Positions 22,197 through 51,248 of a DNA stretch of 64,000 nucleotides are shown here, piece by piece. This stretch comes from an uncultured Clostridia bacterium (GTDB taxonomy: Bacteria > Bacillota > Clostridia > TANB77 > CAG-508): contig CANQPY010000001.1 of NCBI GenBank assembly GCA_947625835.1, forward strand, positions 6,763-70,762, read 5' to 3'. Under the pieces are notes generated by a model that saw only the letters and a program-made list of their open reading frames with translations, was not told where the DNA came from and searched no databases. Position 1 is the stretch's first letter, and each line of letters begins with the position of its first letter. The position numbers and the translations under genes were made by a program.

Positions 22197-23473
22197 TTAT
22201 TCAACCTCAATTTATTAACTATTTATTAAAATCTAAGGATTCATCTCTAATTACAGTAAATAATCTAACAGATGATTTCTTTTCAGATTACAAAGATGAG
22301 TTTAATTATATAAGAAACCACCTACAACAATATGGTAAAATCCCAGATACTGAAACTTTCATAAGTATATTTCCCTCATTTGATTTATTTGATGTAGAGG
22401 AAAGCCCCAAATATCTTCTTGATGCTTTATATGAGGATAGAAATAAAAGATACTTAGTAAAAAGTTTCAATTTAATCAGAGATGCAATCAATAATAATAA
22501 TGTTGATAAAGCATTGAAAATCCAGAAAGAAACAAATGATAAATTAGTCCAGGCAAAACATATTGAATCTGTAGATATCTTTAAAGATATAAGTAGATAC
22601 AATGTTTTCCTTGATAAAATGACCGACTTTAATAAATATTATGTCACTACAGGATTCCCAGAATTAGATGAAGTAATTGGGGGATGGGATAGAAAAGAAG
22701 AATATGCAACCATTATTGCAAGACCTGGTAAGGGTAAATCTTTCATACTATTAAAAACAGCATTAGCAGCGGCAGAAAAAGGACTTAAAGTTGGATTATA
22801 TTCAGGCGAAATGACAGCGAATAAGGTAGGTTACAGGTTAGATAGTTTAATATCCCACATTTCTAATACTAAATTAAATCATGGTAATGCAGATGTACAA
22901 ATAGATTATCAAAAATTTATTGACAATATTAAACAAAATATTCCGGGAACCATTGTAATATTAACACCCGCAATGGTTGGTGGACCTGTGGGGGTAGGTA
23001 CCTTAAGAGCATTTATTGAAAAAGAAAAATTAGATATGCTTTGTGTTGACCAACATTCATTATTGTCAGATGATAGAGGTGCTAAAAATAATATTGAAAG
23101 AGCTGCCAACATATCTACAGATTTGAAATTACTTCAAACTCTAACAGGCATCCCAATTATTACAGTATCACAGCAAAATAGGGAAAGAGTAGAAGAAAAT
23201 GGTGCAGATACAAGAAATGTATCTCAAAGTGATAAAATTGGTCAAGATAGTACCATTGTAATAGCATTGGATAAAAAAGATAATGTGCTTACTCTTAATT
23301 TAATCAAGACAAGAGACGGTGGGGAAGGAAACCACCTAAGGTATCTAATCAATCTTGATAAAGGATCATTTACATTTATTCCAGATGAAGAAGATGCAAC
23401 TAAGGGATCAAAATGTGAAGACCTTAAAAATGAGTTTGAATACGAAACAAATATCATGGAGAATCCTTTTTAG
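22193..23473 (+). CDS. dnaB: Replicative DnaB-like helicase
   Basis: 'TTGFPELD', 'ARPGKGKS', 'SQQNR', 'SDKIGQD'. Confidence 0.9.
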   Translation: MIIQPQFINYLLKSKDSSLITVNNLTDDFFSDYKDEFNYIRNHLQQYGKIPDTETFISIFPSFDLFDVEESPKYLLDALYEDRNKRYLVKSFNLIRDAINNNNVDKALKIQKETNDKLVQAKHIESVDIFKDISRYNVFLDKMTDFNKYYVTTGFPELDEVIGGWDRKEEYATIIARPGKGKSFILLKTALAAAEKGLKVGLYSGEMTANKVGYRLDSLISHISNTKLNHGNADVQIDYQKFIDNIKQNIPGTIVILTPAMVGGPVGVGTLRAFIEKEKLDMLCVDQHSLLSDDRGAKNNIERAANISTDLKLLQTLTGIPIITVSQQNRERVEENGADTRNVSQSDKIGQDSTIVIALDKKDNVLTLNLIKTRDGGEGNHLRYLINLDKGSFTFIPDEEDATKGSKCEDLKNEFEYETNIMENPF

Positions 23474-24471
23474 TGGAACTTATAATTAAAAATAAAACCA
23501 TAAATGGTAATATAAGAACAATTCTTGAAAAACTTAAGGTTGATTCCAAAAAATTCAATTTATTAAGAGAAATGAAGGATTCAGGTGATGAATTAATTGT
23601 TACTTGTCCTTACCATGCTAATGGTATGGAGAAACATCCTTCAGGGGGCTTTTTAAATACAAGAAAAAATTCTAAAACCCCCTTTGGTTTTTTCCACTGT
23701 TTTGCTTGTAATCATAGTGCTTCATTACCTCAATTAGTTGCAGATTTTTTTGATAGTGATTTAGAAGTAGGTGAAGAATGGTTAATCAATAATTTTGGTG
23801 GGGATGTAATTTCAAATGTACTATCTTCTCCAATAGAACTAAAACCAAAAGAAAATAATAAACCGCCCCTAGATGAAGCCATATTAAGGGAATTTGATTA
23901 TTATCATCCATATATGTGGCAAAGAAAACTTACAAAGAAAATAGTTGATGATTTTAGAATTGGGTATGATCATATCCGTAATGCAATTACTTTTCCAGTA
24001 TGGGATGAAAAAAACAATTTAAGATTTATTACAGCAAGATCAGTAACATCAAAACACTTTTGGATTCCTAAAGATGCAAATAAACAAATATTATACTTAC
24101 TTAACTTTGCAATTCAACAAAATGTAACTATATTAGGTATTACAGAAGCTCAAATAGACGCATTAACATCTTGGAGTTATGGTTTTCCTTGTTGTGCTAC
24201 ATTAGGCAGTGTTTCAGATGAACAAATAGAAATACTAAACAAATCAGGAATAAGAATATTTATCACTATGTTTGATAATGATGAATATGGAGAAAAATTC
24301 ACAAACCACTTTAATAAAAAAATTAGAAAAGATGTTTTAGTATATAATTTAAAATTACCAAAAGGAAAGAAGGATATAAATGATCTTTCTTTAGAAGAAT
24401 TTAACAAATGCCTAAATGAATTAGGTATAGAATATCGAATAGAAGAAAATAAATTTGGAGGTGTCCAATAA
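23473..24471 (+). CDS. dnaG: DNA primase
   Basis: Zn-binding CPYH...CFAC; TOPRIM 'TEAQID', 'FDNDEYG', 'KDIND'. Confidence 0.9.
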   Translation: MELIIKNKTINGNIRTILEKLKVDSKKFNLLREMKDSGDELIVTCPYHANGMEKHPSGGFLNTRKNSKTPFGFFHCFACNHSASLPQLVADFFDSDLEVGEEWLINNFGGDVISNVLSSPIELKPKENNKPPLDEAILREFDYYHPYMWQRKLTKKIVDDFRIGYDHIRNAITFPVWDEKNNLRFITARSVTSKHFWIPKDANKQILYLLNFAIQQNVTILGITEAQIDALTSWSYGFPCCATLGSVSDEQIEILNKSGIRIFITMFDNDEYGEKFTNHFNKKIRKDVLVYNLKLPKGKKDINDLSLEEFNKCLNELGIEYRIEENKFGGVQ

Positions 24472-25263
24472 ATGGGACAAGTAGATTATAGTAGTTTTAA
24501 GCAAAGAACAGCACAGAATAATTCAAATGGAAATAACAGTAACAGAGGTCCCAGAGTTGGGTATTTTACTCTTAAGCAAGATAGGGATCAAGCCATTGTA
24601 AGATTCATGATTGATTCACCAGACGATTTTGATATTGTTGCTGGTCACAGAATGATGATTAATGGATTTAATAGAATGGTAAATTGTGTTCGCGATATTC
24701 ATGATCCAGTAGAAAGTTGTCCTCTTTGTACAGCAGGAAAGAAGTTAGAATATAGAATTTATATTCACCTTATTGAATATACAAGAGATGAAGAGGGTAA
24801 GATTGTAGCTACACCCAAGGTATGGGAACGCTCAACAGCTTACATTAATACACTAACAAATCTTCTTAACGAATATGGCCCACTTTCTGATAATGTTTTC
24901 AAGATTACAAGAAATGGCGCTGCAGGTACAACAGGCACAACTTATGATATTACTTATTGTAGACCAGAGGTATATAAGCCTGAACTTTATGTTAAGGATG
25001 AATCACTTTTTAACGGATATAAGGCAGTAGGCAATGCTGTATTAGATTATGATGTAGATAAACTTGCAGAGCTTGTAAGTGGGACCGCAGAAGCACCAAC
25101 TACAAAGAAGGAAGAACAGCCCGTGCAGGATTGCGCTCCTAGAACAGCTCCAACTACAGAAGCTCCCAGGACAGCTCATTCCGCAACTACTCCTCGTTCT
25201 GCTCCTACATATAGTGATCAGGATACATCCCAGCCTAACATGCCAGGTAGAAGATTTTATTAA
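24472..25263 (+). CDS. Single-stranded DNA-binding protein (gp32-like)
   Basis: 'AIVRF', 'CPLC', 'KITRNG..TTY'; low-complexity tail. Confidence 0.75.
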   Translation: MGQVDYSSFKQRTAQNNSNGNNSNRGPRVGYFTLKQDRDQAIVRFMIDSPDDFDIVAGHRMMINGFNRMVNCVRDIHDPVESCPLCTAGKKLEYRIYIHLIEYTRDEEGKIVATPKVWERSTAYINTLTNLLNEYGPLSDNVFKITRNGAAGTTGTTYDITYCRPEVYKPELYVKDESLFNGYKAVGNAVLDYDVDKLAELVSGTAEAPTTKKEEQPVQDCAPRTAPTTEAPRTAHSATTPRSAPTYSDQDTSQPNMPGRRFY

Positions 25264-25278
25264 TAAAGCAATAAACTT

Positions 25279-25306
25279 AGGGGTTGGTGTAACAGCCAAC
25301 CCCTTT
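25279..25306 (+). terminator. Hairpin / probable terminator after SSB
   Basis: AGGGGTTGG...CCAACCCCTT. Confidence 0.55.
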
Positions 25307-25331
25307 AATAAAATAAAAATGGAGGAAATAA

Positions 25332-26981
25332 ATGGGTAGGAAACCTAAACAAATACCTCAAGAATCATTATGGGGTGAAGAATTTAATTTACCACCACCT
25401 CAAGAAGAAGTAAAAAAAGTATTGAAAAAAGTAAATGATAAAACAGATGCCCAAAAAATCAAATCTAAATTAACACCACTATCAGAGAAAATAGAAATTA
25501 TTTCCCAAAATGTACATAAAGTATTAGGCCATTACAAAGACCAAATGGTAGTAATTAGGGATAAAGAAACCTTCCATAATTACATTAGTGCGGCTATTGA
25601 GCAAGGAATAATTGCTATAGATACTGAAACAGACAATACAGTTGATACAGTGGCTTGTACTTTAATGGGTTTGGTTATATATACTCCAGGCCAAAAAAAT
25701 GGATATGTGCCTGTACACCATGTAGATTATGTAACAAATGAACTACTCCCAAACCAACTAACAGAAAAAGATATAAGAGAAGAACTAAACAGATTATTAG
25801 ACAATAACACATATATAATAATGCACAACGCGATATTCGATATTCAAGTTATTTATACTACATGTGGTGTTTTCCTTCCATGCCACTGGGATACAATGGT
25901 GGGCGCAAGATTATTAAATGAGAATGAAAAATCATCAGGCTTAAAATATCAATATATAGATAAAATTGACCCTAACCAGCAAAAATATTCGATTGAGGAA
26001 CTATTTGAAGGCTTATCATATGCTATTTTTCCTCCAGAATTGTTTGCATATTATGCCTCAACTGATGGATATATGACCTATAAACTATATGAATATCAGG
26101 TAGAAGCATTTAAGGACCCAGAACAAGCAGGAATGTTTAGGATATTCAGAGAAACAGAAATGAATATCATTCCTATCTTGGCCAAAATGCAATTAAAAGG
26201 TGTAGCTTTTGACCACGATTATCAAGCACGACTATCTAAAAAATATAATAAAATATATGAAGAATGTGATGCTTTAGTAATGGAAGAACTACACAAATTT
26301 GATGATATAGTAGCCAAATGGAGATTAACACCAGAGGCTAATTACAAACCTCTCAATAGAAAGGGGGATGGGTTTAATAAATCCAAAAATGAGCAATTAG
26401 AAGATCCAATTAGTGCAGATTCACCCACGCAACTAGCAATATTGCTATATGACATATTAAAAGCACCTGTAGTATCTAAAGATAAGCCAAGAGGTACAGG
26501 GGTAGAAGAACTAAAAGCTTTACAAGCCAAGCTAAATTTACCTCTAATAGATCTCATATTAAAGAAAAGAAATATTCAAAAATTACTAAATACATTTGTA
26601 GATAAACTACCTGGAGATGTAAGTAAAGTGGATGATAGAGTTCATGCAAGCTTCGGTTCTGTCATGACTGACACGGGCCGTTTCAACTCTTCATCGCCTA
26701 ATTTGCAAAATATTCCCGCTAAGAATAAAGAGATTCGTTCAGTTTTTTGTGCAGGTAGAGCACAAGAAATAGAAAAAATATTTGATGGTTTCTTACATCT
26801 ATATGATTATGATGAAGTAGAAACCCAAAGAGGTTGGGTAAAAGCAAAAGATCTAAAAACAACAGATTCATTGGTAGTAGAAGATGGCATCCTTAAAATT
26901 GCGTCTATTAGAGATCTAAATGGTATAATTCAAGTGTTCCCAGAAGAGGAAGAAAATAAAGGAGTGGAACATGCAGCATAA
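25332..26981 (+). CDS. polA: Family A DNA polymerase, N-terminal part (3'-5' exonuclease, thumb, start of palm) with a Hint-like C-terminal extension
   Basis: 'IDTET', 'HNAIFD', 'YASTD', 'TGRFNSSSPNLQNIP', 'EIRSVFCA'. Confidence 0.9.
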   Translation: MGRKPKQIPQESLWGEEFNLPPPQEEVKKVLKKVNDKTDAQKIKSKLTPLSEKIEIISQNVHKVLGHYKDQMVVIRDKETFHNYISAAIEQGIIAIDTETDNTVDTVACTLMGLVIYTPGQKNGYVPVHHVDYVTNELLPNQLTEKDIREELNRLLDNNTYIIMHNAIFDIQVIYTTCGVFLPCHWDTMVGARLLNENEKSSGLKYQYIDKIDPNQQKYSIEELFEGLSYAIFPPELFAYYASTDGYMTYKLYEYQVEAFKDPEQAGMFRIFRETEMNIIPILAKMQLKGVAFDHDYQARLSKKYNKIYEECDALVMEELHKFDDIVAKWRLTPEANYKPLNRKGDGFNKSKNEQLEDPISADSPTQLAILLYDILKAPVVSKDKPRGTGVEELKALQAKLNLPLIDLILKKRNIQKLLNTFVDKLPGDVSKVDDRVHASFGSVMTDTGRFNSSSPNLQNIPAKNKEIRSVFCAGRAQEIEKIFDGFLHLYDYDEVETQRGWVKAKDLKTTDSLVVEDGILKIASIRDLNGIIQVFPEEEENKGVEHAA

Positions 26982-27024
26982 AATAAAAATTAGAAAACCA
27001 GAAAAGAAACTAGTTGGGGGTGAT
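26971..27024 (+). CDS. polA: Exon 1 of the DNA polymerase C-terminal subunit (MQHKIKIRKPEKKLVGGD)
   Basis: GGAG RBS 6 nt before ATG 26971; joins 27295 to restore motif A 'LVGGDFSQLE'. Confidence 0.85.
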
Positions 27025-27294
27025 TAAATGAAGTCCCTATGTGTAGAGATATGCATAGGTATCCCATTGAATTGCTGGAAACTCCTAACGTAAAGCCGAG
27101 GACAACCAGCAGCCAAGCCTCTTTACTGAGGAAGGTTCAACGACTATCTCGCAAGAGAGTAGAAAGTAAGTACTTTCGAAGTGGTGGGTATCCATAATAA
27201 ATGGATAAAGATATAGTCTAAACACCTGTGAAAATAGGTGGGGATAAAAATAATTATCCCATTATAGTGTAACGAACTATAATAAATGCATGTG
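27025..27294 (+). ncRNA. Group I self-splicing intron (270 nt, no ORF)
   Basis: 5' exon ends in U and intron ends in G. IGS GAAGUC pairs with exon GAU and UUC. Conserved elements AATTGCTGGAAA, AACCAGCAGCC, TTCAACGACTA, AAGATATAGTC; P7 is GACTA 27142-46 / TAGTC 27214-18. Removal restores the frame. Confidence 0.92.
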
Positions 27295-28398
27295 TTCTCT
27301 CAACTAGAAGTAAAAACTGCAGTCTATAGTTCCAATGATCCTGACATGCGTAAGACATATGAAGATGGTCTAGACTTGTATTCATTAGTTGGTTCCATGG
27401 CATATAATAAAAAATATGAAGAATGCTTGGAATTTTATCCTGAAGGAACTGAACTAGAAATAGAAGGTAAAAAAATAGTTTGCGGGCGAAAAGAAATAAC
27501 TAACGAAATTGGAAAAAAATATCGTCAATCTTCAAAATCTATTCTGATAGGTAGTATATATCAAAGAGGTGTTCCCTCTATTGCTGAACAAATAAAGAAA
27601 ACCCCAGAAGAAACAAAAGAAATAATGGATAATTTCTACAAGGGTTTTCCTACCATGACTAAATGGTTTGAGGATAGTAAGAAATTTGCTTTAAAATATG
27701 GATACATGGATAATGCGGTTGGCAGAAGAAGAAGACTGCCTGCAGCATTGCTCCCCAAATATTCCATTACTACCTCAGTAACATCAGGTTCAGAAGGTTT
27801 TAATCCATTACTAGGGTGCAGCAACAAAATAGATACCACTTTAATTGATAAATATAGAAAAAAATTAGAAGAAAGAGAATTCATATCTGCTAAAGATTAT
27901 GAAGAGATTAAAAAGCAGGCAAAAGCTGAAGGTGTGGAGATTCACAATAATGGTGGACTGATAGCACAGGCGTTGAGGCAGTGTGTAAATTTCCAAGCTC
28001 AGAGCTTGGGCGCGGATATAGTCAAATTCGCAATGATTTTAGCAGATAAAGATCCAATTCTTAAAGATCTTGGTTTTGAAATGTTAATCCAAGTCCATGA
28101 TGAGCTGATTGGTGAATGCCCTGCAGAAAATGCAGATAAAGTAGCAAAAAGATTATCAGAATTAATGTCCTCAACTGCGGAAAAAATGACAGATAATATT
28201 CCTTTTCCGGTAGATTGTTATGAAGTAAATAATTGGTATGAAGATGAATTAAATACTTCTCTTCAAACACTGATGATGCATCATAAAGAACTATCTCAAG
28301 AAGACTTATATAAATTAGCATGTGAAGAACACCAAGAATTACTTCCAGAAGCTATCCATGATGTAATATTTGAGGGAAAAGAATTAAGAATTTCTTAG
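27295..28398 (+). CDS. polA: Exon 2 of the DNA polymerase C-terminal subunit (motifs A, B, C)
   Basis: 'FSQLE', 'RQSSKSILIGSIY', 'GRRRRLP', 'NFQAQS', 'QVHDEL'. Confidence 0.9.
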   Translation, partial: FSQLEVKTAVYSSNDPDMRKTYEDGLDLYSLVGSMAYNKKYEECLEFYPEGTELEIEGKKIVCGRKEITNEIGKKYRQSSKSILIGSIYQRGVPSIAEQIKKTPEETKEIMDNFYKGFPTMTKWFEDSKKFALKYGYMDNAVGRRRRLPAALLPKYSITTSVTSGSEGFNPLLGCSNKIDTTLIDKYRKKLEEREFISAKDYEEIKKQAKAEGVEIHNNGGLIAQALRQCVNFQAQSLGADIVKFAMILADKDPILKDLGFEMLIQVHDELIGECPAENADKVAKRLSELMSSTAEKMTDNIPFPVDCYEVNNWYEDELNTSLQTLMMHHKELSQEDLYKLACEEHQELLPEAIHDVIFEGKELRIS

Positions 28399-28416
28399 TT
28401 TCTTAGAGAAATATTG

Positions 28417-28426
28417 TGCTAGATTA
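28417..28426 (+). promoter_or_regulatory. Putative phage late-promoter motif (TGCTAgATTA variant)
   Basis: One mismatch to TGCTAAATTA, which recurs intergenically at 35100, 36894 and 51050. Confidence 0.5.
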
Positions 28427-28456
28427 CATGTACAATAATTTAACAAGGAGTTATCT

Positions 28457-28618
28457 ATGGATAAAAGACTTATTAATTTTGAAATAGATGAGGAACTAAG
28501 AAAGAAAATAAAGAAAGAAGCGTATGATTTAGATTTATCTATTTCTGCAGTACTTAGGCATATCATAGAAAATTATTTTAATGCTAAGGAAGAGAAAGAT
28601 GAGAGTGTCAGGATTTGA
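28457..28618 (+). CDS. Ribbon-helix-helix protein (not in ORF track): MDKRLINFEIDEELRKKIKKEAYDLDLSISAVLRHIIENYF...
   Basis: AAGGAG RBS; beta-strand 'INFEI' plus two helices; paralogs at 35141 and 51090. Confidence 0.8.
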   Translation: MDKRLINFEIDEELRKKIKKEAYDLDLSISAVLRHIIENYFNAKEEKDESVRI

Positions 28619-30539
28619 AGCGCTTGTAGATAGGATAACCAAAGAAGAATTATACCAATATGTAGTGGTAGAACGCCATACCAATAGAGAAGCAAAACAA
28701 CATTTTAATATTGGGTCTAGTGATACTCTTCTGAAACTTTTAAAATATTATGGGTTAAAAAAACCCACGAAGAAAGAAATATTACTTACCAAGGCATCAA
28801 AGGAAGAACTTTACCAATATTATATAGTTGAAAACCATACATTTAAGGAGTGCATAGAAAAATTCAATTTGGGTAGTTTCCCACAACTTAAAAAACTATG
28901 TAACTACTACAATATTGTTAAAAATGAGCCTATAGAAGAGATAATAAAAAGAGTACCTAAAAATGAAATAATTAGATATTATATAGAAGAAAAACACAGC
29001 CATGATGAAACTCTTGAATATTTTAATTTAGGTGCTGATGCTTTTTATTATCTTTTAAAGCTATATGATATAGTTAAAGAAAGATTCAATTGGGGAAAAT
29101 TTCAAAATAAACCCACAAAAGAAGCATTATATAATTTATATGTTGTACAAAATAAAACAGCGATAGATATATCCGCAGAATATAACATAAGTAAAGGATT
29201 AATTATTCGACTTCTCAAAGAATATGGTATAAGCTTAAAAACCATGTCAGAAAATGTCAGGTTGGGTAGAGAAAAAGTTTATAAATTATATGGATCTAAA
29301 GAAAATTACTGTAAAGCAACAAACAATAAAGTACAGCAAACTATGCTAAAAAAGTATGGTTTTAATACATATTCTCAGATGCCTGATTATAATGATAGAG
29401 TTAAATCAACTAACTTGAAAAAATATGGCGTAGAGTACTATACCCAATCTCAAGAGAATAGAGATAAAATTAGTGAAAAACTAAAAGAAAAAATTAATGA
29501 ATTAGGGTATGCAAAACTAAGTCAAGCCTCATTAGATGAAAAATTGCTCAAATTACTATATAATGAAGAGGAATCTGTAAAATTCCTAAATACATTTAAA
29601 GAACCCCCCACACCATTTCAACTTCAACAACAATTTAATTGTGGACAAACAGTTATAAGCCATTGGATAGAAAGATGCAATTTACAACCCTATGTAAGCT
29701 ATGTGGTAAGCAACCCTGAAAAAGAAATAGAAGAATATCTAAAATCCCTAAATGTTTGTTACCAAATGCACAGTAGGCTTACTTTAGATAGTAAGAAAGA
29801 GCTAGATTTTTATCTGCCCGACTACAATATAGGTATCGAATTTAATGGTACTTATTGGCATTCAAGTTTGATTAAAGATAAAAATTACCATTATAATAAA
29901 TCAATAGAGGCTGAAACTAAAGGAATAAGAATAATTCATATTTGGGAGTATGAGTGGGAAGATTCAAAACAACGTGAGAAAATATTATCTCTCCTAAAGA
30001 TAGCATGTAATAAAGTAAATACAAAAATTTACGCACGTAATTGTACAATTAAAGAAATTACAAATAGAGAAGCAAAACCTTTTAACGAAGCCAACCATTT
30101 ACAGGGGCATAGAAATGCCCAAGTAACCTATGGTTTATTTTATAATGATAGATTAGTACAACTAATGTCCTTTAGTAGAACTAGGTATAATAAAAACCTA
30201 ACTGGTGGTAATGATTGGGAAATAATCAGAGGATGTCCGGCAAGCAACAACATAGTTGTTGGTGGTGTAAGTAAGCTATTTAAACATTTTCTTAAAGAAT
30301 ACAATCCAGATCATGTTTTTAGTTACTGTGATTTCAATAAGTTCGATGGTAGAGGCTATGAAGCAATTGGTATGAAATTTGCAGGGTATACTGGACCAGA
30401 TATGAAATGGTTACTACAAAATGGCCAGGTAGTTTCTAGACAGCCTTCAAAGCATAAAGAACTGAAAGAGATCTCTAAAGCTCAGCTTTGGGGGGCAGGC
30501 AGTAAAAAATATATGTGGGAGAAACCTACGCAGAACTAA
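28599..30539 (+). CDS. Free-standing homing-type endonuclease (N-terminal helical repeats, Vsr/PD-(D/E)XK domain, C-terminal accessory domain)
   Basis: Four 'KEELYQYYIVENH'-type repeats, 'KKYG' repeats, 'ELDFYLPDYNIGIEFNGTYWH', 'IHIWEYEW'. Confidence 0.8.
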   Translation: MRVSGFEALVDRITKEELYQYVVVERHTNREAKQHFNIGSSDTLLKLLKYYGLKKPTKKEILLTKASKEELYQYYIVENHTFKECIEKFNLGSFPQLKKLCNYYNIVKNEPIEEIIKRVPKNEIIRYYIEEKHSHDETLEYFNLGADAFYYLLKLYDIVKERFNWGKFQNKPTKEALYNLYVVQNKTAIDISAEYNISKGLIIRLLKEYGISLKTMSENVRLGREKVYKLYGSKENYCKATNNKVQQTMLKKYGFNTYSQMPDYNDRVKSTNLKKYGVEYYTQSQENRDKISEKLKEKINELGYAKLSQASLDEKLLKLLYNEEESVKFLNTFKEPPTPFQLQQQFNCGQTVISHWIERCNLQPYVSYVVSNPEKEIEEYLKSLNVCYQMHSRLTLDSKKELDFYLPDYNIGIEFNGTYWHSSLIKDKNYHYNKSIEAETKGIRIIHIWEYEWEDSKQREKILSLLKIACNKVNTKIYARNCTIKEITNREAKPFNEANHLQGHRNAQVTYGLFYNDRLVQLMSFSRTRYNKNLTGGNDWEIIRGCPASNNIVVGGVSKLFKHFLKEYNPDHVFSYCDFNKFDGRGYEAIGMKFAGYTGPDMKWLLQNGQVVSRQPSKHKELKEISKAQLWGAGSKKYMWEKPTQN

Positions 30540-30604
30540 CCCCAGAACAAATAAGGGGAGTGTTAAGCGGAGAAATAAATGGTCTCTGGAATGGATTGTC
30601 TTAA
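30521..30604 (+). pseudogene. Displaced remnant of a DNA polymerase C-terminus
   Basis: ETYAELTPEQIRGVLSG...* aligns by eye with the polymerase end EEHQELLPEAIHDVIFEG*. Confidence 0.55.
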
Positions 30605-30656
30605 AAACAAATAATAGAAGGACTTAAAAAACACCTCAAGCCCAATTTTTATAATT

Positions 30657-31502
30657 ATGCAGATAACAGACGATGATCTTTACTTCTATTATGGAAGCAA
30701 ATATTTAAACCTAAATAGTAGATATAAACAAGCGCCAGATTTATTTAATGAGGAAAGAAAAAAGCTATCTAAGGGAGGAGGCTCTAGAGAAGACATAATA
30801 GCATATGCTAAAAAATCTCTAAGGGCCCCGCTGCCCAATGAACAAGAATATATTAAGAGGGAAGATTGGCTTCCCTTTGAAGATTTAACTGGTGAAAGAC
30901 AAGAAGTATTAGATAACCCTATTTGGAATAAAACTCAAAAATTTATATTTGAAAATTTTAAACCCTCATCTACTTCTCTTATTATTCAAAGATGCAGCAG
31001 CAGAAAGCCTTATATAGATAATGGTAATTACAAATATACCAAATTATTGCAGGAACACAAACTATGCGACCTTGCTGTTGCTTCATTAGAGATAATTCCT
31101 ATAAATTTTACCATTTATTATCCATTTAGGCAGTATGATTGGAATGATAAATTTGAAACTCCAGAACTGACAGAATATGCTATAAATAGAAAGACAAATA
31201 GAATTATCCAATTTATAGATCATTTTGGGTATCAAAAGATACTTATTCTAGGGCCAGGGTTTGAACATGACACTTATTATAAAACCATTACAGATAAACT
31301 AAAAGAACATTATGGAACTTCAAAGGAAATTCATTTTGTAATGGATGAAGAAACGACAAATAAGTGTATCGAAACTATGAATGGGTACAAAGGATTAGCA
31401 AAAGTCAGATACCCCAATCTTAAACCTACTCAAGAAAGAATTTGCAGTTTGTTAGGGGTAGAAAACCCTCAAAAGAAGATTGAGAAGGTAAAATTATGGT
31501 AA
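30657..31502 (+). CDS. ArcS/DUF5591-like protein (archaeosine synthase-like)
   Basis: 'QRCSSRKPY' and 'SLEIIP...YYPFRQYDW' match the ArcS 'PCS.RKPY...VP...YP...YD' signature; que genes nearby. Confidence 0.6.
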   Translation: MQITDDDLYFYYGSKYLNLNSRYKQAPDLFNEERKKLSKGGGSREDIIAYAKKSLRAPLPNEQEYIKREDWLPFEDLTGERQEVLDNPIWNKTQKFIFENFKPSSTSLIIQRCSSRKPYIDNGNYKYTKLLQEHKLCDLAVASLEIIPINFTIYYPFRQYDWNDKFETPELTEYAINRKTNRIIQFIDHFGYQKILILGPGFEHDTYYKTITDKLKEHYGTSKEIHFVMDEETTNKCIETMNGYKGLAKVRYPNLKPTQERICSLLGVENPQKKIEKVKLW

Positions 31503-31509
31503 AAAAAAA

Positions 31510-31541
31510 TAGTTGACTCTTTTCCATACTTCTATTATAAT
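31510..31541 (+). promoter_or_regulatory. Sigma70/SigA-like early promoter
   Basis: TAG-TTGACT-N17-TATAAT. Confidence 0.8.
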
Positions 31542-31572
31542 ACTGGCAGAAATTAAGTGAGAGGTATAAGAA

Positions 31573-32331
31573 ATGGAAAAGAAAGAGCTGAATGAGCAAA
31601 TTGAGATTTTCAGGTCGAGGATTGAAAATGAAGAGAATGTAATTGCTAATAAATTTGTAAATATTTTTTATCATTTTCTCCCCGAAGGAATTAACATTAC
31701 AGGTTATAAATACAGTAGAAATCTTGGATTTACAGCATATGTTGAAGCTAACAAAGTTGCAAATCTTGCCATTACTTGGGACAACTTTACCAAGGGTTTC
31801 CATACCCGTTTGTGCGGTATGGATATTACCAAAGATAATTGTATAAATGTTTTCATAATGAATGACCTTTGGAAGCACCAAGAAGAAATTGAAGCTGAAG
31901 TTGCTGAAAAGATCAATTATGATTTGATAGATGCCCTGATAAATAAATTTGAAGAATTGAAACGTGAATTACTTGTAATTGAAGCACAAGAGGAAGAGGA
32001 ACTTAAAGATAAGCTGTTTACTGTAGGTAATGTATTCCATCAAGGCGATGCGTCCTATCAGGGCGATAAGATTAAAACTGAAAAGGGACTTCTTGGGTTG
32101 TTTGCAGGTAATTGGTATGTTCTTCACCACAATGTTTGGGATGTTGAGGTTAGAGTTATAGCCAGTAAACCCAATGCCAAGAAATTCCAATATAAGGTCA
32201 CTTGGATGGAAGATGGTGATGAAATGACCAAAGAAGGATGTTTGAAAAAAGAACACGTTGTAGATTTTGTCCATTGGGAAAACAGATGCAATAAAAGGGA
32301 CGACAATGATACCAGTTGGTTCATTAAATAA
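31573..32331 (+). CDS. Hypothetical protein
   Basis: ORF with GAGG RBS downstream of an early promoter. Confidence 0.6.
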   Translation: MEKKELNEQIEIFRSRIENEENVIANKFVNIFYHFLPEGINITGYKYSRNLGFTAYVEANKVANLAITWDNFTKGFHTRLCGMDITKDNCINVFIMNDLWKHQEEIEAEVAEKINYDLIDALINKFEELKRELLVIEAQEEEELKDKLFTVGNVFHQGDASYQGDKIKTEKGLLGLFAGNWYVLHHNVWDVEVRVIASKPNAKKFQYKVTWMEDGDEMTKEGCLKKEHVVDFVHWENRCNKRDDNDTSWFIK

Positions 32332-32418
32332 TTAAAGAAAATGTATGAACAGGTGGTAGTAAAAACACTACCACCTACATACTAATCAAAATAAATAAAT
32401 TAAAAGGATAGTATTTAT

Positions 32419-32895
32419 ATGGCAGTAGAAAAACATATTCCTAAAGATGCAGAAGGCTATATTACACCAAACCATTATTACGGGCAAAATTATCAATTGC
32501 TTGACGTAATTGAAGATCAGCTATCCCCAGAGGGTGTAAGAGGATTTACAAAAGGCTTAATTTTCAAATATCTATATGGATGCGTAGATGATACAACATT
32601 GCGCAGATGTACAAAGGCAAAATACTATCTTGATGAATTAATTATTTATTGTAAGAATCATGGGGAAACAATCCCTGAAGATAATAACCTTAAACCCAAA
32701 TATTATAATAAGGGAAAAATTGAAGTTATTGATATCCTTGAAGACCAACTATCAAAAGAGGAATTAAAAGGTTTCTATCTTGGTATGGTGATTAGATATC
32801 TTACAAGAGAGGGAAAAAAGAACGGTTTGGAAGATCTTCTAAAAGCAAAATACTATCTTGATAGATTCATTACAAACTTGGAAGGTGGTTTATAA
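32419..32895 (+). CDS. DUF3310 protein (T7 gp1.7-like), two tandem domains
   Basis: 'PNHY...KYL...KAKYYL' and 'PKYY..GKIEVID...RYLTR.GKKNGLEDLLKAKYYL'. Confidence 0.8.
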   Translation: MAVEKHIPKDAEGYITPNHYYGQNYQLLDVIEDQLSPEGVRGFTKGLIFKYLYGCVDDTTLRRCTKAKYYLDELIIYCKNHGETIPEDNNLKPKYYNKGKIEVIDILEDQLSKEELKGFYLGMVIRYLTREGKKNGLEDLLKAKYYLDRFITNLEGGL

Positions 32896-33143
32896 TGAAT
32901 CCCATTGAAATTGCAGGTATTATAGCATCCCTATTTATTGTTGTTTCTATGTGTTTTAAGACAACAACATTTAAGGGTACTATCATTATGAGAATTATAA
33001 ATGGTTTAGGTAGTATAGTATTTGTAGTTTATGGGGCTTTACTTCCAGCACTTGCAACACTTATTACTAATGCTTGTGCCTTTGTAATAAATCTATTTTA
33101 TCTAATAAAGGAAATTAAAGATCATTATAAAAACAATCAATGA
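32895..33143 (+). CDS. Small 3-TM membrane protein (YgjV / PQ-loop-like)
   Basis: 'GIIASLFIVVSM', 'RIINGLGSIVFVVYG' hydrophobic pattern. Confidence 0.65.
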   Translation: MNPIEIAGIIASLFIVVSMCFKTTTFKGTIIMRIINGLGSIVFVVYGALLPALATLITNACAFVINLFYLIKEIKDHYKNNQ

Positions 33144-33147
33144 ATAT

Positions 33148-33286
33148 TGCATAAATAGATGAACAATCATAAAATTGGATTTAAAAAGTCCAGGGACGTG
33201 TTACACTAACCTTACTGTCCATAAACCTAAAGGTGGCTTAAACGATTCAAGGTCGGCCACTGTATCTTTAGTGGTCGACCTTTTTT
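33148..33286 (+). ncRNA. Structured non-coding RNA candidate (possible attenuator or riboswitch) upstream of queC
   Basis: Several hairpins, a strong terminator and a competing antiterminator helix; no coding potential. Confidence 0.45.
33249..33286 (+). terminator. Intrinsic terminator
   Basis: AAGGTCGGCCACT...AGTGGTCGACCTTTTTT. Confidence 0.85.
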
Positions 33287-33376
33287 AATATATGTATATA
33301 AGGGTATTTTCGATATCTTCATACCCATAATAATTCTTCTAAGATATAATGATTATTTAGGAGACAAAAAAGTAAA

Positions 33377-34174
33377 ATGAAGTGTGTAGTAAGTTTAAGT
33401 GGTGGTAGAGATAGTGCTACCTGCCTTGGTGTTGCAGTTGATAAATATGGTGCAGAGAATGTGTATGCCATGGGATTTGAATATGGTAGTAAACATCCTC
33501 AAGAACTAGAGCATGCAAAGAAAATTGCAGCCTATTATAATGTACCTTATCAAATTGTTACTATCAACCCAGAAATTTTTAATGGTTCCACATGTACCTT
33601 ACTTCAAGGATCAGAAAAAGAAGTACAAAAAGGTAAGACATATACTGAAATACTAGCAGAAAAAGAAGGTAAAGTTGATACATATGTACCCTTCAGAAAT
33701 GGTTTATTTTCAGCATATGTGGCAGCTAAAGCGGAAAGTTTAGTACAGCAATTTGATGAAGATGTAGTAGTTATGTTAGGGCAGCACGCAGATGATAGTG
33801 GCTATTACATTGATGAACATGGTAATGAAATGTTAGATGAATCAAAAGCTGCCTATCCAGATTGTACAGTTTCATTTGTAAAAGCATTTGAAAAAGTGGT
33901 GGAAGTTAGTTCAGTAGGTAGAGTTCATTACGAAGCACCCTTTGTTAAGATGCACAAATGGGAACTAATAAAAATGGGGTTAGGGCTTAAGAAGAGGGTT
34001 CCATATGAACTGTGCTTTAGTTGTTACGACCCTGTTTATGAAAATGGCGAATGGGTGGAATGTAAGAACTGTGCTACTTGTTTAGATGTAAAACAAGCAA
34101 TGGATAAAACACTTGATAAAATTCAAAGTGAAAATCCAGAACTATATGAAGAAGTAAAATATTTAAGAAATTAA
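33377..34174 (+). CDS. queC: 7-cyano-7-deazaguanine synthase
   Basis: 'SGGRDS', 'YGSKH', 'TYVPFRN', 'YPDC', 'SCY...C..C.TC'. Confidence 0.93.
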   Translation: MKCVVSLSGGRDSATCLGVAVDKYGAENVYAMGFEYGSKHPQELEHAKKIAAYYNVPYQIVTINPEIFNGSTCTLLQGSEKEVQKGKTYTEILAEKEGKVDTYVPFRNGLFSAYVAAKAESLVQQFDEDVVVMLGQHADDSGYYIDEHGNEMLDESKAAYPDCTVSFVKAFEKVVEVSSVGRVHYEAPFVKMHKWELIKMGLGLKKRVPYELCFSCYDPVYENGEWVECKNCATCLDVKQAMDKTLDKIQSENPELYEEVKYLRN

Positions 34175-34199
34175 AATTTGGAGGCAAAATAAATAAATT

Positions 34200-34997
34200 A
34201 TGGAAAAGGTAAAGAACTTTTTTGTAAGCGTAGGAAGAAAAATCAAGCAGGGCTTCTACAATGAATTTGTAGGTACGTGGAAGGGAATTACGAAGGAAAA
34301 GATCAGTTTTTCCATTGTATTACTTGTAATTGCTAATATTTTCTTCTTATTAATTAGTAATATTATTGCGGTTAAGACAATAGTATTTGGTAGAGTAAAT
34401 GGGTTACAGTTTTCTGTGCCCTGCGCCGTATTATGCTATAGTTTTTCGATTATTATCAGTGATTTGTTAGCAGAGTTAGATTTCAAATGGACACGTCGTA
34501 GTTGCCATATAGGTTTCTTTTTGAACCTATTAATGGTCGCTATTTTCGAACTTTCAATCGTAATTCCAGGCGAAGTAGGTGGTTTCCAAGAAGGTTTAGG
34601 GGTATTAGGTACTACTTGGTTTATGCTCATCGGAAGCGTGCTCAGCTTCTACATTGGTGATTTGGTGAACGATAATGTATTTAAGAAACTTAGGAATAAA
34701 GATGGTGAAGGTAATGGTAAATTAATTAAACGCTGTATGCTAAGTACAGTATTTGGTCAATTATTGGATGCTACAATTTTCATTTTCTTAAGCCTTCAAC
34801 TTCTTCCAGGCTTATTTATGGAAAGTGGGCCATTTACAGCACTTAATTCATCACTTGCAGATCCTATTAGCTGGGCTAATATGGGAGTTATGATTGGTCT
34901 ACAATGGGTAATAAAGGTACTTATTGAGTTTATAGTATCACCCCTTGTAATTCTTATTTGTAATAAGTATAAGAAATCTCATCAGGAAGAACTCTAA
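34200..34997 (+). CDS. yhhQ: Queuosine precursor transporter (VUT/YhhQ family)
   Basis: 'ISNIIAVK', 'SDLLAE', 'STVFGQLLDATIF'; multi-TM; adjacent to queC. Confidence 0.85.
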   Translation: MEKVKNFFVSVGRKIKQGFYNEFVGTWKGITKEKISFSIVLLVIANIFFLLISNIIAVKTIVFGRVNGLQFSVPCAVLCYSFSIIISDLLAELDFKWTRRSCHIGFFLNLLMVAIFELSIVIPGEVGGFQEGLGVLGTTWFMLIGSVLSFYIGDLVNDNVFKKLRNKDGEGNGKLIKRCMLSTVFGQLLDATIFIFLSLQLLPGLFMESGPFTALNSSLADPISWANMGVMIGLQWVIKVLIEFIVSPLVILICNKYKKSHQEEL

Positions 34998-35019
34998 TTT
35001 AATATTAATAAATACATAG

Positions 35020-35056
35020 AGGGCTCCTATATTATTAAGTGTAGGAGCCCTAATTT
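35020..35056 (+). terminator. Terminator-like hairpin after yhhQ
   Basis: AGGGCTCCTA...TAGGAGCCCT. Confidence 0.7.
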
Positions 35057-35140
35057 ATAAAAGAAAACTAAAGAAAATAAGAGAAGTCAAAAGGTAATGT
35101 GCTAAATTAGATGAAAATGCCTTTTGAAGGAGATAATAAA

Positions 35141-35302
35141 ATGGATAAACATGCAGTAAACTTTGAACTTCCCGAAAATATTTTCCTTCAGCTTAAACAA
35201 TTAGCAGAAGATAATGATAGAAGTATCGCTTCTCAAATAAGAACAATCATTATCTCCTACTTGAAGGAGAATAATAGTGACGCACCAGGAATTCAAAACT
35301 AA
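35141..35302 (+). CDS. Ribbon-helix-helix protein
   Basis: 'VNFELPE...LKQLAEDNDRSIASQIRTII'; preceded by TGCTAAATTA (35100) and AAGGAG. Confidence 0.75.
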   Translation: MDKHAVNFELPENIFLQLKQLAEDNDRSIASQIRTIIISYLKENNSDAPGIQN

Positions 35303-35342
35303 ATTATCAGAAACAAAAACCATTTTAAATGTAATGAAGGTT

Positions 35343-35374
35343 TAGTTGATTCTTTTTTAGATTTATCTTATAAT
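35343..35374 (+). promoter_or_regulatory. Sigma70/SigA-like early promoter
   Basis: TAG-TTGATT-N17-TATAAT; leaderless or near-leaderless for 35381. Confidence 0.75.
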
Positions 35375-35380
35375 AGAGCC

Positions 35381-35683
35381 ATGAAAAAGATAATCAAGAT
35401 TGAAGGCAATAAGAAAGAAGTAATTAAGATAAAAAATCTTAATCAGCTGGTTGATCTTTATCCTGATGAAGCTTGGGTAAATAGTTACGGGGTAAAAAGA
35501 ACCATAAATGGAATGATTGTAATAATTTATAATGATGGGCTATGGGGAGAAAATACCCATCCTATTACCACCCCATTTCAAAATCAAGAATGGGTAGGCC
35601 CCATATTCATAGTCAAAATTTCCAAATATTCTCATTTATACAACCTTACAAAGAAAGAAATAAAGGAATACATGAATGGATAG
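35381..35683 (+). CDS. DUF3846-like protein (candidate immunity partner)
   Basis: 'VIIYNDG...WVGPIFIV.....NLTKKEI' pattern; overlaps the start of the downstream toxin-like gene. Confidence 0.5.
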   Translation: MKKIIKIEGNKKEVIKIKNLNQLVDLYPDEAWVNSYGVKRTINGMIVIIYNDGLWGENTHPITTPFQNQEWVGPIFIVKISKYSHLYNLTKKEIKEYMNG

Positions 35684-36161
35684 TGATTCATCCCAAATTT
35701 GGGAAAAACTTAAAAAATTAAACGAGACGCATTATGCAGATGCTGATTATAGGAACCAACACTTTAGAAAACATGCCAAGCAATTTAAGGGAGATCGCCA
35801 GCGAGAAATTAATGCTGGCCTTTTTAATCTCTTTGATGTAATGTCTGAAGAAGAGTATGATGAGAAGGGCCATCAGTTATCTCTTCAACCAGTAACTTCC
35901 TCCGAAACTAATTCTACAGATGATGTTATTGGGTATATTACAAAATATGAAAATAGAATTATAAAATACAATAAGAAAACAGGTGAGCTAATTGTATATA
36001 AGGCTAATTCTTCTCCCGGGGCTACAATTTCCTATTATATGGTAACTGGCAATTCAGAAAGTGCAAGAAATAGAGTCTATAATCAAATGAAAAATGGTAA
36101 TGGCAAATATGCAATGAAACGCAAATATGTACCTGAAGACGATATGTATAATACACCCTAG
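35676..36161 (+). CDS. Predicted BECR-type RNase/toxin-like protein with IWExLxxLNE leader
   Basis: 'HFRKH..QF', 'EEEY', 'GYIT...IIKYNKKTGELIVY...GATISYY' resemble polymorphic-toxin C-terminal RNase domains. Confidence 0.55.
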   Translation: MDSDSSQIWEKLKKLNETHYADADYRNQHFRKHAKQFKGDRQREINAGLFNLFDVMSEEEYDEKGHQLSLQPVTSSETNSTDDVIGYITKYENRIIKYNKKTGELIVYKANSSPGATISYYMVTGNSESARNRVYNQMKNGNGKYAMKRKYVPEDDMYNTP

Positions 36162-50341: not shown

Positions 50342-50866
50342 ATGTTTAGAAAAAATAAGAAAGAAATTGTTAAGTTAGGAGTGCTTGAAGGTACAGATTG
50401 TGACCACCTTAAATGGAAGAGCAAAAACAAAGCAATGAGTTGGAATTTTGCTTATTATATGCCTGTACTAATGAGAGATGCCCTTAGAGAAATGGCTTCA
50501 AACCTTCATAGTTGTCCTAGTTGGCTAGCAGAAGAATTTGATGATGATGTAGATGCTGCGTGTGTAGAGTGGAGTAAAATACTAAATAAAATTGCAGATA
50601 AATTTGATTATGCTTCCAGAATATGTAATACTTTAGATTTTCTATCTAAGGAAGATCAAATGAAATTGGATGAATACTATTCAAAAGATCACTATGTTGA
50701 CTATAAAGAAAATAAAGATGGAAGTGTTCAATATTCTTTAGAACCTATTCCTGATTATATAGAAGAAATCCATAAGAAAGAAGATGTAATTGCAGAAGAT
50801 ATGCAGAATAAATTAAAAGAGGCGCTCCAGGAACTTGGAGAAATTTGGTACGACATATGGGATTAA
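50342..50866 (+). CDS. Hypothetical protein
   Basis: 'WSKILNKIADKF...LGEIWYDIWD' resembles common phage hypotheticals. Confidence 0.55.
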   Translation: MFRKNKKEIVKLGVLEGTDCDHLKWKSKNKAMSWNFAYYMPVLMRDALREMASNLHSCPSWLAEEFDDDVDAACVEWSKILNKIADKFDYASRICNTLDFLSKEDQMKLDEYYSKDHYVDYKENKDGSVQYSLEPIPDYIEEIHKKEDVIAEDMQNKLKEALQELGEIWYDIWD

Positions 50867-51009
50867 ACAATATTGTAATTGTTGGGGGAGGCCCAGCAGG
50901 TATTTTTTGCGCATACGAATCAGTACAGCAGGGGTATAGTGGAAAAATCACAATCCTTGAAATGGGCAACCTAATTGAAAATAGAAAATGCCCCAAGGAT
51001 AGAATATGA
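50857..51009 (+). pseudogene. Orphaned 5' fragment of an FAD-dependent oxidoreductase
   Basis: MGLNNIVIVGGGPAGIFCAYE...ENRKCPKDRI* is homologous to the N-terminus of 52638..54023. Confidence 0.85.
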
Positions 51010-51089
51010 AGAAAAATTAAGAATTCTTAATAAAAATGAAGAAATTTATTGCTAAATTATGTGTAATAAATTTCTGAAGGAATACTAAA

Positions 51090-51248
51090 ATGAAAAAAAT
51101 ATTAAATTTTGAAGTAGAAGAAGAAGTCATCCTTCAGTTAAAGAAGATAGCGAAAGAAGATGAAAGAAATCTTTCAGCAGAAATTAGATTTATTATTCTT
51201 TCCTATCTAAAGGACAGAATGAAGAATGGCAAATTTGAAGAACAATAA
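51090..51248 (+). CDS. Ribbon-helix-helix protein (not in ORF track): MKKILNFEVEEEVILQLKKIAKEDERNLSAEIRFII...
   Basis: Preceded by TGCTAAATTA (51050) and AAGGA; paralog of 28457 and 35141. Confidence 0.8.
   Translation: MKKILNFEVEEEVILQLKKIAKEDERNLSAEIRFIILSYLKDRMKNGKFEEQ

Follow-up and report, generated by a model that had tools for sequence, protein, structure and literature searches.

We analyzed a 64,000-nucleotide stretch of DNA (the window; bases 6763 to 70762 of a 198,913-bp contig) from the assembly of an uncultured Clostridia bacterium, in which the 3' end of a DNA polymerase gene, polA, is followed by a cassette of a ribbon-helix-helix (RHH) gene and an endonuclease gene and then by a start-less piece of a second, diverged polA end. 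We read this arrangement as the scar left by homing between two divergent alleles of a phage polymerase, a reading to which we give a probability of about 0.6. The contig itself is taken to be a large phage genome binned with a bacterial metagenome-assembled genome, because of its gene content (primase-like, SSB-like, polA, and the 7-deazaguanine DNA modification genes DUF5591/ArcS-like and QueC) and its composition (32.9% G+C, against an assembly mean of 27.7%). Throughout, D-type denotes the polA lineage of the window and R-type the lineage whose tails match the start-less fragment; P numbers denote homologous proteins, and L numbers the readable loci of relatives.

A displaced R-type polA end lies beyond the endonuclease gene

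The gene order of the original prediction was found as described, with a polA open reading frame (ORF; 27286 to 28398, terminating ..ACEEHQELLPEAIHDVIFEGKELRIS*), an RHH gene (RHH1, 28457 to 28618), an endonuclease gene that overlaps it (HEG1, 28581 to 30539), and the start-less fragment, all on the forward strand. The fragment (..ELTPEQIRGVLSGEINGLWNGLS*, about 30521 to 30604) holds 25 codons and no start codon; its frame is open only from 30506, with no plausible start, and its stop lies at 30602 to 30604. Its segment ELTPEQIRGVLSGEINGLWNGL was identical at 22 of 22 residues to the ends of P0019 and P0043, and a tblastn search of the whole 1.9-Mb assembly with intact polA proteins found the fragment with P0019 (E value of 3.4e-8, 81% identity over 27 amino acids [aa]) and with P0020 (E value of 3.4e-7). 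P0019, P0020, and P0043 are intact polA ORFs that carry the fragment-type end. The proposal that the downstream fragment is the displaced C terminus of a polA gene is thus borne out, and it is a genuine polA tail from the R-type lineage. The likeness between the fragment and the window's own polA end, which had been judged by eye, proved weak: of 21 positions aligned within the last 25 residues, the tails of the window polA and P0019 shared only 8, and there was no DNA-level alignment between 28230 to 28420 and 30481 to 30660.

The joint can be placed closely. R-type homology begins between 30521 and 30531, and the last three codons of HEG1 with its stop (30531 to 30539) lie inside the remnant, the stop codon (30537 to 30539) falling in the fragment's E-L-T codons. 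No terminator was supported behind the remnant (fold of -1.5 kcal/mol, z score of +0.66). The right-hand neighbor is an ArcS-like DUF5591 gene (30657 to 31502, forward strand; Pfam DUF5591, E value of 7.1e-7).

The two polymerase lineages differ over the whole C-terminal half

The ORF that had been called polA is present, but the polymerase is encoded by two genes, and this ORF is the second exon (exon 2) of the intron-bearing gene for the C-terminal half. The N-terminal-half gene (25332 to 26981, forward strand) encodes the 3'-5' exonuclease and the start of the polymerase domain (Pfam DNA_pol_A_exo1, E value of 1.6e-12; DNA_pol_A, E value of 2e-25) and bears a C-terminal extension of about 75 aa; the same two-gene layout was found in L044 and L009. 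Exon 1 of the C-half gene (MQHKIKIRKPEKKLVGGD, 26971 to 27024, forward strand), read from the frame, ends on the motif-A aspartate codon and is homologous to the N termini of the intron-less, 385- to 387-aa proteins P0002, P0005, and P0006. It is separated by a 270-nucleotide (nt) intron from exon 2 (27295 to 28398, forward strand; Pfam DNA_pol_A, E value of 2.3e-34), which is D-type and 92% identical to P0001, and whose tail ..EEHQELLPEAIHDVIFEGKELRIS* spans 28320 to 28398.

Among homologs of the polA C-half (the best 120 of 694, compared over the last 75 residues of each), two kinds of ending stood out. P0001 to P0004 and P0009 (92 to 66% identical) end ..EEHxELLPEAIHDVxFEGKELRIS like the window, and P0005 to P0007 (58 to 62%) carry graded variants of that tail such as ..ELTPESIHRVLFEKEKLHI. 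The R-type group, 48 to 51% identical overall, ends ..ELTPEQIRGVLSGEINGLWNGLA(D), as in P0019, P0020, and P0043 and, more loosely, in P0025 and P0035. The window's C-half is 92% identical to P0001 and 49 to 51% identical to the five R-type proteins that were aligned. Every D-clade body, at identities from 92 to about 58%, bears a D-type tail, and the tails diverge in step with the bodies. Blockwise, the R-type sequences differ across the whole C-half, at 41 to 51% identity, and at 20% just before the tail. Residues 151 to 230 are 78% identical to P0019, and several D-clade members are only 47 to 55% identical there; since this block is so R-like against flanks of 41 to 51%, we take it as a sign of a past exchange between D- and R-type sequences inside polA.

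These comparisons bear on how much DNA was replaced. The original prediction had the cassette invade a polA that ended with the fragment, bringing a replacement for only the last ~25 codons. Such an event would account for an intact gene followed by the cassette and then by a displaced end. The tail up to ..FEGK is also colinear with other polA tails (for example, ..FEEGKDYLWL* in L008), and the ELRIS* codons overlap a near-palindrome, AATTAAGAA.TTCTTAGTT (28382 to 28400, taking in the LRIS* codons at the end of polA), that recurs at the left border of a second cassette in the window. Copies of this palindrome were found only at 28383 and 51016, and the 17/19 colinear match between the two borders was reached by 13 of 2,000 shuffles and 14 of 2,933 random 77-mers, which is suggestive, not strong. 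However, proteins with the fragment-type tail are only 49 to 51% identical to the window over the whole C-half, and D-type tails sit on D-clade bodies from 92% to about 58% identity. The remnant moreover overlaps about 15 codons that are also kept in the present gene (ELLPEAIHDVIFEGK versus ELTPEQIRGVLSGEIN), and a border replacement of 5 or 6 codons could not reach that far; the cassette border itself holds at most the last 5 to 6 codons (ELRIS*) of polA. A replacement confined to about 25 codons is accordingly quite improbable, and what survives of the diverged replacement end is the order of the parts, the D-type end being common to the whole D-clade and diverging with its body. Because the lineage difference spans the C-half and the D-type tail changes in step with the body, the replaced piece was probably all of exon 2 (about 1.1 kb) together with the cassette. 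That the whole of exon 2 arrived with the cassette is a possibility that we rate somewhat below an even chance.

HEG1 is a predicted EDxHD/Hef-type homing endonuclease

HEG1, of 652 aa, shares 38 nt with RHH1; read from a second ATG, at 28599, it is 646 aa long, the form recorded for this contig. The protein matched phrog_3339, 'homing endonuclease', with an E value of 3.8e-83, and DNA matches in Campylobacter phage records are annotated 'Hef-like homing endonuclease'. Four helix-turn-helix (HTH)-like repeats (about 28641 to 29237) are followed by a DUF7487 region (29217 to 29474), a Vsr-like nuclease (29706 to 30014), and a GNAT-like domain (30030 to 30536), all on the forward strand. The N-terminal repeats, of about 40 aa each, follow the pattern ..ELYQYYIVENHT..FNLG.. 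and matched Pfam Clr5 with an E value of 3.5e-5 and 24.3 bits (cutoff of 22.3, which no single stretch passes alone) and HTH_28, below its cutoff, with an E value of 2.6e-4.

Sequence searches with the nuclease region were weak, with Pfam Vsr at an E value of 0.041 and MTES_1575 at 1.6e-4, both below their cutoffs, and a phmmer search of the PDB with HEG1 gave nothing at an E value of ≤1. The structural comparison was clearer. An AlphaFold model built with 44 of the 120 homologs listed (pLDDT of 91.5, pTM of 0.80) placed residues 376 to 478 on the catalytic domain of I-Bth0305I (3r3p_B) with a Z score of 12.2, rmsd of 2.9, 98 of 98 residues aligned, and 26% identity, and on Vsr (1cw0_A) with a Z score of 11.5; Foldseek likewise returned 3r3p_B (E value of 4.2e-4, target-normalised TM score of 0.76). 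In a 45-sequence alignment of residues 330 to 652, and in the numbering of that segment, E78, D80, and H98 were invariant and N93 was at least 90% conserved, the last Asp not being placed. The spacing of these catalytic residues matches that of D196/N208/H213 in I-Bth0305I, as given in PMC3239194. On the strength of the model, HEG1 is a predicted homing enzyme with the I-Bth0305I nuclease fold. The earlier idea that the cassette is a mobile homing-endonuclease unit is upheld.

The C-terminal domain (residues 484 to 652) has a GNAT fold, with Z scores of 12 to 13.7 (2bsw, 13.7; Mom of phage Mu, 8bv8_A, 12.5 over 157 aligned residues), and Mom was also its top Foldseek match (E value of 2.2e-5). 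The domain was present in all 44 homologs aligned and is strongly conserved, its ..NNIVVGGVSKLF.. loop being invariant in the alignment. It matched no Pfam family significantly, Mom reaching an E value of 0.14 and 12.2 bits against a cutoff of 27.1. One could imagine that this GNAT/Mom-like domain works as an acyltransferase, with DNA or a DNA-bound partner as its substrate; an RHH-controlled 'cut-and-mark' cassette would then break naive polymerase alleles, drive the swap of a whole catalytic exon between phage lineages 50% apart, and mark or shield its own site chemically. We put this forward as speculation that is quite unlikely to hold.

A search with the C-terminal half of HEG1 (residues 330 to 652) gave 634 homolog clusters at an E value of ≤0.001, of which the best 120 were examined; all of these had E values below 1e-113 and were 54 to 94% identical. 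Outside the window, at G000 C1:187520-191126, the endonuclease has a third relative (41% identity over 177 aa); judged by eye, both this relative and a GIY-YIG-looking ORF stand among pieces that resemble one interrupted gene. The phage seems to be rich in mobile elements.

The junction recurs in sibling phages, and a minor strain appears to lack the cassette

Co-location of proteins in sibling phages was judged from the recorded size of each protein's longest contig, which is a fingerprint and not shown synteny. By that measure, D-type relatives of at least 90% identity all carry the same endonuclease and junction. Contigs of 193,043 bp link the D-tailed polA P0248 to the 90%-identical endonuclease P0122 and the 86%-identical ArcS-like protein P0242, contigs of 4394 bp link polA P0250 to endonuclease P0259, and a contig of 3854 bp links P0018 to P0137. 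For P0002, P0008, P0009, P0014, and P0020, no such link was found among the 120 endonucleases listed (the best of 634). The endonuclease ends ..WEKP[TI]QN* in 7 of 7 full-length members of two clusters, so the siblings' endonucleases read into the same remnant; the contigs that bear this end measure 3737, 193,043, 4631, 3254, 4394, and 30,603 bp. The junction is reproduced in independent assemblies and is not an assembly artifact.

Reads from four runs of one sample were available, and contigs of X1, X4, X5, and X6 were aligned to positions 23000 to 36000 at 80% likeness. The main strain stands at about 50x, and X1 and X4 also hold minor relatives at about 10x. At least two related strains thus co-occur in the sample, and a chimera of the major strain, of D-type, with a minor one, of R-type, joined at 30531, is conceivable in principle. 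Such a chimera is extremely improbable, as the ..WEKPTQN* end recurs in independent assemblies on other contigs, the summed depth was about 47 to 78 in every bin to either side of the junction, against 10 for the minor strain, and the four runs, though from one sample, contain 0.94 to 0.96 of the sampled words of 27286 to 31502.

One contig of a minor relative (depth of 10.4 in X1) aligned in patches to the polA N-half and to the intron at 27070 to 27148. Of exon 2, it matched only 28232 to 28256 (25 of 1,104 bases, the 'NWYEDEL' box) and then jumped from 28256 to 30531. A contig of similar depth joins 30597 to 30663, at the start of the ArcS-like gene, and the bins from 28208 to 29509, covering the RHH gene and the N-terminal part of the endonuclease gene, had the depth of the main strain alone. 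These observations fit a minor relative that is free of the cassette and has a polA with a fragment-like end directly before the ArcS-like gene, and they suggest that, relative to this strain, the foreign block in the window runs from the intron to 30530 and takes in all of exon 2 and the cassette. The original prediction had expected cassette-free relatives with just such a polA end next to the ArcS-like gene; the minor-strain contigs join in this way, but no close cassette-free relative was found.

Several points weigh against our reading of a D-type cassette that homed into an R-type gene. The minor-strain joints were made at 80% likeness, with one side of only 25 bases and with the intervening letters unknown, and such joints can arise from other organisms or from repeats. 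Six clusters of ArcS-like homologs were found and none matched the recorded sizes of known R-type contigs, so the R-likeness of the right arm comes solely from the minor-relative contigs. Within the D-clade, L(R/K)I(S)* is an old way for the D-type to end; if these final codons are part of the cassette border, the association must be ancient, or else the palindrome is polA-derived. Lastly, IMG/VR, GTDB, metagenome contigs, 60 relatives, and INPHARED yielded no genome that combines a D-type polA body with absence of the cassette, and neither an R-type contig nor a D-clade contig in the range of 58 to 70% identity was readable, so that the identity of the resident allele is inferred rather than seen.

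The searches behind that statement were as follows. IMG/VR gave no relative with the polA C-half as the query, 7 loci at ≤46% identity with an alignment of 23 of the 120 polA homologs listed, and only L008, at 61%, with P0019; three back-translated tail patterns gave 0 matches each. GTDB contigs yielded 15 loci at ≤50% identity over partial matches, and metagenome contigs, queried with a 14-sequence alignment, yielded loci at ≤50% identity among the 80 of 223 that were retained. The 60 relatives (61 genomes with G000) gave only weak polA matches of 22 to 38%, taken to be host polA, and all 226 INPHARED records were <60% identical. The nearest readable relatives, L008, L009, L044, L045, and L056, are 42 to 46% identical in the C-half. 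L008 and L009 lack the cassette and run from polA through a DUF3310-like gene, which matches the window ORF at 32419 to 32895, to the ArcS-like gene; L008 continues into QueC. In the window, QueC (33377 to 34174) belongs to the 7-deazaguanine DNA modification cluster. Compared with L008 over 30657 to 34174 of the window and polA, QueC is 84%, polA about 45%, and the ArcS-like gene 31% identical, and because relatedness differs so sharply from gene to gene, the replication/modification module is a mosaic.

That mosaic also accords with a transfer in the opposite direction, in which the D-type polA and the cassette are native and the right arm (the remnant, the ArcS-like gene, and what lies beyond) is R-type, its broken end having been joined behind the endonuclease gene after the endonuclease cut the R-type genome. 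The junction evidence is the same as for a cassette homing into an R-type polA, the two accounts differing only in where the left crossover lies, and the D-type tail and cassette are common to all close relatives. However, the R-tailed minor relative is also patchy on the N-half to the left of exon 2, which a local replacement fits better, and we consider the reversed direction rather unlikely.

The endonuclease family recurs behind polA in other phages

A tblastn search with the endonuclease matched 6 of 114 loci. The endonuclease gene abuts the polA stop in L044, L045, and L056 and lies 1.3 to 4.5 kb downstream of polA in L047, L075, and L065. The DNA of L044, with the endonuclease, and that of L009, without it, are 82.6% identical up to exactly the polA stop, where homology ends, so that among related genomes there is a presence/absence polymorphism at one site. 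In L045, a 17-nt direct repeat, TGGGATAATAAATAATA, ends both polA and the endonuclease gene. Of the 120 endonucleases listed (the best of 634), nearly all share ..GSKKY[LIMV]W near the C terminus, beyond which the tail varies; the last residues are ..YLWDNINI* in P0140 and P0183 and ..YLWNNIDI* in P0166 and P0194, and these ends equal the polA tails of L044 and P0039. On account of that equality, the family ends in a duplicated piece of polA tail elsewhere as well, but there the piece is short, identical, and joined at shared Y-L-W codons, whereas the piece in the window is longer and comes from a diverged allele.

The copy in L056 (6123 to 7982) lies behind an unsplit polA and has many in-frame stops, several at Trp positions; bacterial two-component-system genes follow it. 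This copy may be a decaying prophage remnant or part of a chimeric contig.

A presumed repressor gene and a second, mirror-image cassette

RHH1 (28457 to 28618, forward strand) encodes a 53-aa, Arc/CopG-like protein. The earlier RHH call was a reasonable one: PHROGs returned 'transcriptional regulator' (E value of 6e-6) and 'Arc-like repressor' (E value of 6.9e-5), though Pfam RHH_1 stayed below threshold (E value of 0.0019, 18.5 bits against a 20.5-bit cutoff). Upstream lies a putative operator-like inverted repeat (28409 to 28440, forward strand) with 9-nt arms, 89% complementary, and a 14-nt spacer. Inside it, at 28417 to 28426, is an extended -10-like element, TGCTAGATTA, the only exact copy in the window. 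Matches to TGCTAGATTA with at most one mismatch were only weakly enriched (15 against 8.5 expected; 1 of 100 shuffles reached 15), and a sigma-70 scan of 28200 to 30800 stayed at chance level (10 found, 12.6 expected). The operator-like repeats and the gene overlap suggest that RHH1 is the cassette's putative repressor.

The second cassette (51016 to 52641, forward strand) is built in the same way, from a palindrome, an inverted repeat, an RHH gene, and an endonuclease gene. Its left border is the palindrome ATTAAGAATTCTTAAT (51016 to 51031), followed by an inverted repeat around TGCTAAATTA (51040 to 51075; perfect 11-nt arms, 14-nt spacer). RHH2 (51090 to 51248, forward strand), which is 38% identical to RHH1 over 39 aa (E value of 2e-7), overlaps HEG2 (51226 to 52641, forward strand), a 471-aa protein with the same HTH repeats and Vsr-like core and without the GNAT domain. 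The nuclease cores of HEG1 and HEG2 are 27% identical over 107 aa (E value of 1e-4), and HEG2 reaches Pfam HTH_28 at 27 bits, above the 25-bit cutoff. To the left of the cassette, a 54-aa ORF (50845 to 51009, forward strand) is a diverged copy of the first ~47 codons of an FAD oxidoreductase (BLASTP, 23 of 47 residues, E value of 7e-17). The intact FAD-dependent oxidoreductase gene (52638 to 54023, forward strand; Pfam Pyr_redox_2, E value of 4.6e-15) lies on the right, its start overlapping the HEG2 stop. Cassette 2 is thus the mirror image of the polA case, with a displaced 5' end on the left, and in each cassette a partial copy of the adjacent gene's end is found beyond the endonuclease or its border (cassette 1, E value of 3.4e-8; cassette 2, E value of 7e-17).

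A small RHH gene that overlaps a nuclease gene, with an operator-like repeat at the promoter, also recalls a toxin-antitoxin or defense pair of RHH antitoxin and nuclease toxin. That is very unlikely here: HEG1, at 652 aa, has several domains and combines four sequence-reading HTH repeats with the I-Bth0305I fold, presence and absence alternate at one site between phages that are 82.6% identical, and both cassettes carry remnants of their target genes.

An RHH gene is seen with an endonuclease gene in three independent cassettes, apparently co-transcribed with it. The third is in L010 (4805 to 5990), where an RHH gene (42% identical to RHH1) overlaps an HNH endonuclease gene with the same HTH repeats at the C terminus; that pair sits between the halves of a polA split at a different position. 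A lone Arc-like gene, RHH3 (35141 to 35302, forward strand; Pfam Arc, E value of 1.7e-4, 21.8 bits against a cutoff of 20.4), has the TGCTAAATTA motif upstream with a perfect 8-nt inverted repeat and is not followed by an endonuclease gene; it may be what is left of a cassette after loss of the nuclease, or else a free regulator. The sequence TGCTA[AG]ATTA stands about 40 nt 5' of all three RHH genes of the window, and this placement is more informative than the motif's frequency.

An ORF-less group I intron in the same gene

The intron of the C-half gene (27025 to 27294, forward strand) is an ORF-less group I intron that splits D|FSQLE, between the motif-A Asp codon and the following Phe codon; its boundaries were inferred from the reading frame. 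Rfam RF00028 matched at 27012 to 27240 (89.1 bits, E value of 2.1e-22), the sole match at gathering score in the window. P0002 and P0005 to P0007 (385 to 387 aa) read through the insertion site and so lack the intron, and homologs of 367 to 370 aa begin at FSQLEV, as if cut by it. These latter ORFs make it seem that the sibling phages carry both the intron and the endonuclease.

The endonuclease could then target the motif-A site of an intron-less polA in a collaborative homing in which intron, exon 2, and cassette move together, the remnant marking the limit of resection and not the cut site. The intron lies 1.3 kb upstream in the same gene, the sibling ORFs begin at FSQLEV, the block that differs from the minor relative spans the intron (27148) to 30531, and there are precedents (PMC10448857). 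On the other side, L044, L045, and L056, which have the endonuclease behind polA, showed no intron at the Rfam gathering score (0 of 3), and cassette 2 has no intron nearby, given the one Rfam match in the whole window. We regard this route as doubtful, though as a submechanism it is compatible with the homing event that we favor.

Other insertions were seen in polA genes of this group. L006 has a group I intron at NL|QNIP (76.5 bits) and LAGLIDADG ORFs in polA, and the N-half ORF of L009 has an in-frame insert that, judged by eye, resembles an intein with LAGLIDADG motifs. In the minor strain (X1 and X4, depth of about 9), 283 other letters replace 8 bases at 26695 to 26704, at the NL|QNIP codons of the N-half; this strain may carry a second polA intron, at the intron site of L006. 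Summed contig depth roughly doubles at 27070 to 27162, and in all four runs many contigs have loose ends at 27104 to 27162; the intron core is common to many other contexts in these metagenomes.

DISCUSSION

The mobile unit proposed here would be a self-regulated operon, with a promoter inside an inverted repeat, an Arc-like RHH gene, and an overlapping gene for an EDxHD/Hef-type endonuclease. During co-infection with a D-type phage bearing the cassette, the endonuclease would have broken the resident R-type polA, and repair would have copied from the donor a D-type exon 2 complete with its end, along with the genes for the RHH protein and the endonuclease. On the left, the crossover would probably lie at or near the shared group I intron; on the right, the end would have been sealed without homology inside the resident polA tail. 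The last ~24 resident codons would thus have been left behind, and now give the endonuclease its final three codons and stop. As the 3' part supplied by the donor was complete, though diverged, the polymerase would have remained whole.

The paper on I-Bth0305I places phage Hef-type enzymes in the EDxHD family and describes features that HEG1 shares: a Vsr-like fold, a modular N-terminal DNA-binding arm, and, as here, a free-standing or intron- or intein-associated position in phage replication genes (PMC3239194). HEG1 differs in its additional GNAT-like domain of about 170 aa, the word 'acetyltransferase' being absent from that paper (PMC3239194), and in its predicted co-transcription with an RHH gene. 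A similar order of gene, endonuclease ORFs, and partial C-terminal duplicate is described for cob and atp6 of fungal mitochondria, in Endoconidiophora resinifera (PMC6279837). Unlike that case, the window has a phage polymerase, a duplicate from a lineage about 50% diverged, an EDxHD enzyme rather than a LAGLIDADG or GIY-YIG one, and a remnant that supplies the endonuclease's stop codon. We take the Allomyces atp6 hybrid gene to be a further example of a partial duplicate.

Collaborative homing, and endonucleases at the boundaries of exchange, are described for ICP1, T7-like phages, and the cyanophage psbA gene with F-CphI (PMC10448857). The present case resembles these in having a free-standing endonuclease, beside an essential gene with an ORF-less intron, at a mosaic boundary. 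It differs in that the boundary can be set to the base from a displaced gene end, and that one genome shows this twice; in PMC10448857, 'remnant' does not occur and 'duplicat' occurs only in unrelated uses. The polA gene is also like other split phage replication genes in its division into two ORFs, with relatives that carry mobile elements at the split (L006, L010, and L009), and unlike them in that no split-intein halves were identified at the window's split and the C-half also holds a group I intron. A literature search of limited scope turned up no such displaced gene end in a phage, no homing endonuclease coupled to an RHH gene, and none with a GNAT-like domain.

Free-standing homing endonucleases are thought to drive the mosaicism of phage genomes, yet the joints of such recombination can seldom be seen. 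In this phage, a leftover gene end pins the joint to within about 10 bases, and it does so at two places in the genome, in opposite orientations. The GNAT-like domain sits in a very abundant family of phage and metagenome endonucleases (the 634 homolog clusters), and both it and the coupling to an RHH gene bear on how such endonucleases are restrained and choose their targets; both can be tested at the bench. The polA case suggests that a selfish cassette is able to exchange half of an essential polymerase for one that is only 50% identical and leave the gene functional.

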